Assembly: GCF_045037415.1 (NCBI RefSeq)
Contig: NZ_CP173438.1
Reading direction: 5' to 3' (one strand)
From: Escherichia coli
Lineage (GTDB): Bacteria > Pseudomonadota > Gammaproteobacteria > Enterobacterales > Enterobacteriaceae
DNA length: 64,000 nucleotides
Part shown: one piece after another, positions 8,440 to 10,724 of the stretch
Numbering within the stretch: position 1 is the stretch's first letter
How the letters are laid out: every line of letters starts with the position of its first letter
Notes under the pieces: model-generated
What the model saw: only the letters and a program-made list of their open reading frames with translations
What the model was told of the DNA's origin: nothing
Database searches by the model: none
Position numbers and translations under genes: made by a program

Positions 8440-9276
<837 letters not shown>

Positions 9277-9421
9277 TTAATTTGCATAGACCGTTTTCAG
9301 AGTAACCAGCGCATCGCTACGCCGCCAGCCAAAAACGCTGATAATTAGAAATTAATGATAAACAGGGAGGGATATCAGTGAAAGGCATGACGCAGAAAGT
9401 GATGCGTCATACCCTCTGGCA

Positions 9422-9787
9422 TTATGCCTGGTCTTGTGACTTTGACGGCAGGCAGCACAGTATAAGCAGAATTACGCCCGTAACAGGGATCAACACGACA
9501 ATGGTAACCCACCACCCTGAATATCCGATATCGTGCATCCTTCTGACGGCTAACGCTATCGCCGGTACGGCAAAAATCAACGTTAAAATAAATGACGCGG
9601 GCAGCGCAAAAAAAATGAAAACACCATAGTCATTGTTAATTGTTACCGCTAACCACCAACATAAAAGCGGAAGCAGACAGATAACGCCACTACCAATCAT
9701 AAACGACCAGAACTCGAAGCGATTGGAAACACCTTCATAATTAAAGATGTTTTTCCACCCTTCCAGATACGCTTCTCCATACGTCAT
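9422..9787 (-). CDS. Small inner-membrane protein, DUF805-like (YhaH/YhaI family); not present at this position in K-12
   Basis: 121 aa; N-terminal NYEGVSNRFEFWSF motif resembling the DUF805 signature, followed by hydrophobic helices; good SD (aaggaag) 8 nt before the ATG; 22 bp downstream of rihC. Confidence 0.65.
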   Translation of the reverse strand: MTYGEAYLEGWKNIFNYEGVSNRFEFWSFMIGSGVICLLPLLCWWLAVTINNDYGVFIFFALPASFILTLIFAVPAIALAVRRMHDIGYSGWWVTIVVLIPVTGVILLILCCLPSKSQDQA

Positions 9788-9809
9788 AGAACACTTCCTT
9801 GTTTTATTA

Positions 9810-10724
9810 TTAGAGCGCCAGGGCCAGCACCTCAGCCACCCACTGCTGGAAGCCTTTCACATCCAGATCCAGCGCCACCTGTACATTGGCTGGTTTGCCC
9901 AGGCAACCGTCGATATCAACAACCGTCGTGCCTGAGGTAAATTCACCCTGAGTTTCTACCGCGACAAAACACGGTTTGAGTGTGAACAATTCCGGGCGCA
10001 CCAGCCAGGCGATAGCGCAAAGATCGTGCATACGTAGTCCACTTTGCATACTGCCGCTACGGTAGTGGCTAAACAGGGCGTGTAGCATTTTTCCGGTGCG
10101 ATTCAACTCCGGCAAAGTAGCGAGATAGTCAGGGGTTAATATTGCCTGATTGGTGACATCCAGACCGCACATGACGATTTCGATGCCGCTACGGAAGACA
10201 CAGGCTGCCGCTTCTGGATCGGCAGCGATATTAAACTCGGCGTTTGGTGTGCAGTTGCCGCGACCAGCAGAACCGCCCATGATCACCAGACGGCGAATAT
10301 ACGGCTTACATTCCGGGCATTGTGAAAGTAACAGCGCAATATTGGTTAACGGACCGATAGCCACCAGGGTAACGGGCTCTGGCGCACGCATCAGGGCATC
10401 ACGAATTGCCAGAAACGCCGGTATACCCAGTGGCTGACGGTTGTGTTCAACAAAGTTATAGCCAGCCATTCCCGATTCACCGTGTACAGATGCCGCATCG
10501 CGCGGCGCACGAACCAGTGGTACGGCAGCGCCCTGGGCAAGCGGAATATCCACATTCCAGAAATGCAGCAGTTGCAGGGCGTTGCGGGTGGTTTTCTCTA
10601 CCGAAACATTACCCGCGACTGTGGTCATCAGTTGCAGATCGAGTTCGGGGGTAAAAATCGCGGCGGCAATGGCAACGGCATCGTCAATGCCGGGGTCTGT
10701 ATCGAGGAAGATAGGTAAATGCAT
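9810..10724 (-). CDS. rihC: Non-specific ribonucleoside hydrolase, 304 aa
   Basis: [22 protein letters not shown]... nucleoside hydrolase DxDxxxDD motif. Confidence 0.93.

Follow-up and report, generated by a model that had tools for sequence, protein, structure and literature searches.

DUF805 proteins form a very widespread family. The closest known members are two paralogs from E. coli K-12, YhaH (b3103) and YhaI (b3104). They are 121 and 118 aa long, respectively, are classed as DUF805 / COG3152 "putative inner membrane proteins", and belong to the uncharacterised "y-ome" (PMC11551758). A search of the literature on DUF805 found no paper assigning a function, and no paper was found on the rihC-DUF805 locus of E. 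coli. At the level of the locus, a 13-kb citrate-fermentation island has been described in the rihC-dapB interval of K. pneumoniae and Salmonella LT2 (PMC2735749). The DUF805 gene studied here lies in the same interval and likewise shows presence or absence within a species (PMC2735749 for the islands). In contrast, the citrate islands are multi-gene, metabolic, and located downstream of the DUF805 gene, whereas the present case concerns one old gene attached to rihC.

The stretch of E. coli DNA that was analysed (contig NZ_CP173438.1, 64,000 nucleotides) is referred to as the window. The ORF list placed a 121-aa reading frame with an ATG start at 9422..9787 on the minus strand. It lies between the ribonucleoside hydrolase gene rihC (9810..10724, minus strand; ORF list and RefSeq annotation of the identical region) and dapB (8440..9261, minus strand; ORF list). 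The rihC stop codon and the ORF start are separated by a spacer of 22 bp (9788..9809, minus strand), within which a Shine-Dalgarno sequence, AAGGAAG, occupies 9794-9800, 6 nt upstream of the ATG. Thus, the features named in the original prediction, a 121-aa ORF 22 bp downstream of rihC in the same orientation and with a good Shine-Dalgarno sequence, were all seen in the sequence. The distance from the ORF to dapB was 160 bp, giving a total rihC-dapB gap of 548 bp in the window, and the ORF list contained no other noteworthy frame in this gap. RefSeq annotates the ORF in an identical genome as WP_000220881.1, "DUF805 domain-containing protein", and the identical protein is present on at least 1000 public contigs under DUF805 or YhaH-family names. 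The ORF at 9422-9787 is thus a true gene whose intact frame encodes a DUF805 (YhaH-like) membrane protein of 121 aa. Since annotation and wide cataloguing precede this work, the finding is an ordinary one.

The proposed DUF805-like membrane protein was confirmed by Pfam (PF05656), for which membership was judged by the curated gathering score of 25.7 bits. The protein scored 71.1 bits (E=1.4e-19), with residues 15-119 aligned to profile positions 2-106 of 111. Three hydrophobic segments were detected at residues ~27-49, 56-81, and 92-113 (Kyte-Doolittle peaks above 1.6); YhaH and YhaI, which belong to the same Pfam family, likewise have three. Between the second and third segments, residues 82-93 read RRMHDIGYSGWW, matching the family motif R-R-x-H-D-x-G-x-S-G-W-W. 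In a 39-sequence family alignment, R82, R83, and D86 were invariant and M84, H85, I87, G88, S90, G91, and W92 were at least 90% conserved. The sequence GVSNRFEFW at residues 19-27, before the first segment, matched the family motif G-R-x-x-R-x-E-Y/F-W, with G19 and R23 invariant and E25 and W27 at least 90% conserved in the same alignment; its second residue is V, not R, in the rihC-linked subgroup. RRxHDxxxSxWW, together with R-x-E-x-W before the first segment, is common to the window protein, YhaH, and YhaI. However, the window protein was only 28% identical to each of the two, making it a distant paralog and not an ortholog, and the loci also differ, the window gene following rihC whereas yhaH and yhaI lie in the yqjG-yhaJ region. 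The C-terminal N-x-Y/F-G-P-x-P tail that is common in the family is missing from the window protein. A Cys-Cys pair at residues 111-112 is invariant in the rihC-linked subgroup and serves as its marker, in contrast to YhaH and YhaI.

An AlphaFold2 model built on the 39-sequence alignment was confident (pLDDT 89.9) and contained helices at residues 23-50, 52-86, and 92-99 plus 101-111, as well as a short N-terminal helix. The third helix of the model is broken at a conserved proline, and on the strength of this break the third hydrophobic segment may re-enter the membrane instead of spanning it. When GFP is fused to the C-terminus of the paralog YhaH, fluorescence is seen at the membrane (PMC3225971), suggesting that this C-terminus is cytoplasmic; this is at odds with a plain three-span model having a cytoplasmic N-terminus. 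Because of the positive-inside rule, the conserved residues were placed on the cytoplasmic face, where we infer that G19/R23/E25/W27 and R82-R83-M-H-D-I-G-x-S-G-W-W form a single polar site. A profile search of PDB sequences gave no match to the 121-aa protein, and a Foldseek comparison of the model with the PDB gave no match below E=3.

The arrangement of the locus points to rihC as the probable first gene of a transcript shared with the DUF805 gene. The two genes share a strand and are separated by a short spacer, no promoter-like or terminator-like site was found in the 22 bp between them, and their adjacency is seen in at least eight species. The equivalent spacers of E. albertii, K. pneumoniae, and K. 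oxytoca measure 22-31 bp, each with a GGAG-type Shine-Dalgarno sequence. Downstream, a hairpin with a 14-bp stem (9381..9416, minus strand; inverted repeat I4) was predicted by RNA folding, starting 6 nt past the ORF stop. The 61-nt stretch containing it folded at -25.9 kcal/mol, versus -16.5 kcal/mol for the K-12 equivalent. Because its U tract is short, the hairpin does not fit the simple intrinsic-terminator pattern; it probably closes the rihC-DUF805 transcription unit before the dapB control region. The DUF805 protein would then be translated from the rihC transcript, given the 22-bp gap, the Shine-Dalgarno sequence, the lack of a promoter between the genes, and the hairpin after the stop.

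The region between the ORF and dapB was also inspected. The dapB upstream region (9262..9390, minus strand) is identical to that of K-12 in the alignments and is unaffected by the indel; a promoter-like site lies within it at 9382..9355. Both allele types, and Pseudocitrobacter as well, have a strong hairpin at the same position, directly before the conserved control region of dapB. The 3' arm of this hairpin (TCATGCC) falls within the block that the window and K-12 have in common. Only this arm and the tail (TCATGCCTTTCACTG) are conserved in sequence, the 5' arm differing between alleles. An Rfam scan of 9100-10000 found nothing.

The rihC-dapB gap of K-12 MG1655 measured 166 bp and contained no trace of the ORF, and the original figures of 548 bp here and roughly 170 bp for K-12 were both right; the net excess in the window is 382 bp. 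Alignments delimited a variable block of 419 bp (9391..9809, minus strand), in place of which K-12-type genomes carry 37 unrelated bp, CCTGTCACATGTTATyGGCATGCAGTCATTCATCGAC. The statement that the extra DNA is almost exactly one gene therefore holds in that the difference is the presence or absence of a single gene, but it is not a clean one, since 419 bp have been swapped for 37 unrelated bp. Local alignments of the 37 K-12 bases with the spacer, the 3' end of the ORF, the hairpin, and the predicted product of a repeat-mediated deletion were no better than those of shuffled sequences. A check for short direct repeats at the indel boundaries, as proposed with the original prediction, gave nothing convincing. 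The only candidate was TATGACGYAT (10 nt, 9/10 matching, copies 377 bp apart), which was no better than regional chance repeats and is probably due to chance.

Two simple routes to the K-12 junction were rejected. Repeat-mediated deletion via TATGACGYAT was discarded because its predicted product does not match K-12, and simple deletion was discarded because the 37 bp are not derivable from the DUF805-bearing sequence. The event behind the K-12 junction was either a replacement or a deletion with subsequent divergence.

The extra DNA had been interpreted as an insertion between rihC and dapB. However, orthologs were found right after rihC in E. albertii, E. whittamii, Escherichia sp. MOD1-EC7003, and a further Escherichia genome, and also in K. 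pneumoniae, K. oxytoca, K. spallanzanii, and Phytobacter massiliensis, indicating that the gene is older than E. coli. In total, the gene adjoins rihC in at least eight species from three genera, and the order ileS-lspA-fkpB-ispH-rihC-DUF805 is common to these ortholog-bearing species. Identity to the window fell with species distance. The values for DUF805, RihC, and IspH were 79%, 88%, and 98% in E. albertii, 50%, 83%, and 92% in K. oxytoca, and 42%, 83%, and 92% in K. pneumoniae, and the Klebsiella orthologs as a group were 42-52% identical to the window protein. Such a gradient is what one expects of a faster-evolving gene that was inherited vertically. The dS separating the window from E. 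albertii was 0.35 for the DUF805 gene, comparable to the 0.57 of dapB. As a separate observation, rihC dS between E. coli and E. albertii was 1.1-1.2, about twice that of dapB (0.55-0.58; window rihC versus L005 and L007).

Because orthologs at the same site show graded divergence, the gene must have existed before E. coli arose, and K-12-type genomes represent a derived loss. The identification as a DUF805 gene, with a history as an ancestral neighbour of rihC that was lost in K-12-type genomes, is one that we hold with high confidence. The opposite direction, in which the lineage of this strain recently gained a single gene by insertion into an otherwise fixed core region, would fit the lack of the gene in K-12 and in 81% of complete E. 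coli genomes, and would also fit the lower G+C of the ORF (44.5%, versus 53-55% in its neighbours). The distribution is not, however, the restricted and recent one of an islet: seven other species, of three genera, have an ortholog at this very position, and the divergence of these orthologs scales with species distance. The G+C at third codon positions is 50% in the ORF, close to the 51% of dapB, so the low overall G+C reflects the content of hydrophobic amino acids; a foreign-DNA signature was rejected on this ground. Mobility genes, a tRNA, and significant flanking direct repeats were looked for at the indel and none was found, and the rihC-dapB interval has already been described as a hotspot of variation. 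Taken together, these points make a recent insertion very improbable.

Ancestral presence followed by loss also has to accommodate genomes outside Escherichia that possess rihC and lack the gene. Such genomes were Citrobacter koseri, Kluyvera georgiana, and Raoultella terrigena, in which a convergent LysR gene lies right after rihC, and Pseudocitrobacter, in which the gap is 264 bp. This patchy distribution at the family level requires several losses or some lateral exchange.

The description of the surroundings as a rigidly syntenic core region did not stand, as the rihC-dapB interval holds different islands in different Enterobacteriaceae. In E. whittamii, mannose-type phosphotransferase (PTS) and cupin-like genes were observed in the interval. 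In Klebsiella, Citrobacter, and Kluyvera, it contained a LysR regulator, a 209-aa protein, and a CitA/CitB-like two-component pair. Cargo that differs by species in this way (L008 3900-7500; L010 4296-8344; L086-L089; L098-L101) matches the published citrate-island hotspot.

The rihC-linked orthologs resemble the window gene in lying directly after rihC with a spacer of 22-31 bp and in encoding 120-121 aa. They are 42-83% identical to the window protein, and 34 residues, including the Cys-Cys pair, are invariant across nine aligned members. They differ in what follows: in Klebsiella, a convergent LysR gene comes after the DUF805 gene and overlaps its 3' end, whereas in E. coli dapB is directly next. 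The overlap with the LysR-family gene measured 53-68 bp (L098 3814-3866; L101 3796-3863; L100 3811-3866). In K. aerogenes (L100 1-3866), the block of DUF805 and LysR genes is kept, with CitMHS transporter and aconitase genes upstream instead of rihC, and in K. grimontii (L011) the ortholog is kept with no rihC within 4 kb. These two cases show that linkage to rihC is not obligatory.

Among 5426 complete E. coli genomes, 1047 carried the gene and 4379 had the loss allele (~81% without the gene). The gene was always chromosomal and lay between rihC and dapB in every row examined. It is truly missing from K-12, not merely unannotated there, and, judged by length, it is not commonly disrupted where it occurs, being full length in all 1047 carriers; on both points the original prediction was upheld. 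The gene is kept by most phylogroup B2 E. coli and by a second lineage including ST405, a phylogroup D sequence type. The window allele, at 99% identity or more, accounted for 937 carriers, including ST131, Nissle 1917, LF82, PMV-1, and avian pathogenic O1:K1:H7 strains; these are all phylogroup B2, an assignment made from recognised strain names.

A second allele was present in 107 genomes, at the same locus (2501-2866 in both L003 and L004). It was 84% identical to the window in DNA and 76% in protein, with at least 99% identity among its carriers, one of which, WP7-S18-ESBL-09, is an ST405 strain (PMC9598598). In three further genomes, a recombinant allele combined a B2-like 5' half with a 3' half like the second allele. 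The dS between the two E. coli alleles was 0.43, as deep as that between species (E. coli versus E. albertii); because of this depth, at least one of the E. coli alleles may have been imported by recombination from another Escherichia lineage.

K-12, IAI39 and SMS-3-5 (phylogroup F), 042 (D), and E2348/69 (B2) all lack the gene and have a gap of 166 bp, and the junction sequence was near-identical in the four that were read (K-12, IAI39, SMS-3-5, and 042). As gene-less genomes share the same 419-to-37-bp junction, they are best read as carrying one old loss allele, which spread both vertically and by homologous recombination. In E2348/69 (L097 4206-6108), positions that differ from the window are concentrated in the final 250 bp of rihC and disappear past the junction, a pattern in the alignment which suggests that a short recombination tract brought the loss allele into this strain. 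The rihC-dapB region as a whole is strongly mosaic within E. coli.

The DUF805 gene is under purifying but relaxed selection. Its dN/dS was 0.22-0.35 and significantly below 1 in all ten pairwise comparisons (Fisher p 2e-7 to 1e-4), while rihC and dapB gave values of 0.03-0.10, so that the ratio for the DUF805 gene is 3-10 times higher. This elevation, the repeated loss of the gene across species and lineages, and a T8 homopolymer inside the ORF (9608..9615, minus strand) at which frameshifted database variants diverge would all be consistent with a decaying, functionless remnant that survives in B2 only because no deletion has so far removed it. Such decay is nevertheless an improbable explanation, as dN/dS was significantly below 1 in every pair tested, the frame is preserved and the length stays at 120-121 aa between Escherichia and Klebsiella, the conserved residues of the DUF805 family are all retained, and at least 1000 contigs carry the identical sequence. 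Regarding the variants themselves, the frameshifted proteins P0010, P0017 (41 member sequences), and P0022 diverge exactly at the T8 tract, and a frameshifted E. albertii form, P0012, diverges further downstream; the T8 variants could be sequencing errors or the result of real slippage.

With respect to function, the conserved position next to rihC points to co-expression and perhaps to a common role, and a pairing that has persisted since before the split of Escherichia and Klebsiella may reflect a real functional partnership. The product would then be a dispensable accessory protein of the inner membrane that acts together with RihC in nucleoside salvage, for instance as a handler or sensor of a nucleoside, a base, or ribose at the membrane. 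Against a functional link, most E. coli have rihC but not the DUF805 gene, and a RihC homolog was found within 4 kb of none of 70-odd distant DUF805 loci. The role of a dispensable membrane accessory in RihC-linked nucleoside salvage, although the likeliest one, is therefore put forward only tentatively and with low confidence. The broader proposition that the protein either has a functional tie to RihC, as its membrane partner, or is an inner-membrane factor exploited by phages, with loss driven in that way, we consider unlikely.

The phage part of this proposition assumes a phage-host conflict, in which phages exploit the membrane protein for entry and fast evolution and loss are repeatedly favoured. 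Such a conflict would explain both the presence/absence polymorphism and the deep allelic split. It is in line with the elevated dN, with the coexistence of two alleles at 76% amino-acid identity in one species, and with the recombinant allele. The one lead on function is that PhiWec188 and PhiWec190, two coliphages, need the paralog YhaH to infect, as confirmed by complementation (preprint, bioRxiv 10.1101/2024.11.29.626071). Phages themselves encode DUF805-containing membrane proteins (PHROG 12855, E=2.5e-16); this was the one PHROG match in the phage library, and its label, "membrane protein", carries no functional information. On the other hand, dN/dS is well below 1, and the substitutions are spread over all segments without concentration in one exposed loop. 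PADLOC gave no match for the gene, and the evidence on YhaH comes from one preprint and concerns the paralog, not this protein. A phage-host conflict thus seems a rather remote explanation.

Nothing in these results would surprise a specialist. They correct the direction of the event: with K-12 as the reference, an ancestral gene looks like an inserted one. Most phylogroup B2 strains, including ST131, Nissle 1917, LF82, and O1:K1:H7, have one gene more in the rihC operon than K-12, and work on nucleoside salvage or the membrane proteome in B2 strains should account for it. The conserved partner rihC, together with natural strains with and without the gene, offers a cheap experimental entry point. 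If true, a partnership with RihC would be the first functional handle on the large DUF805 family.
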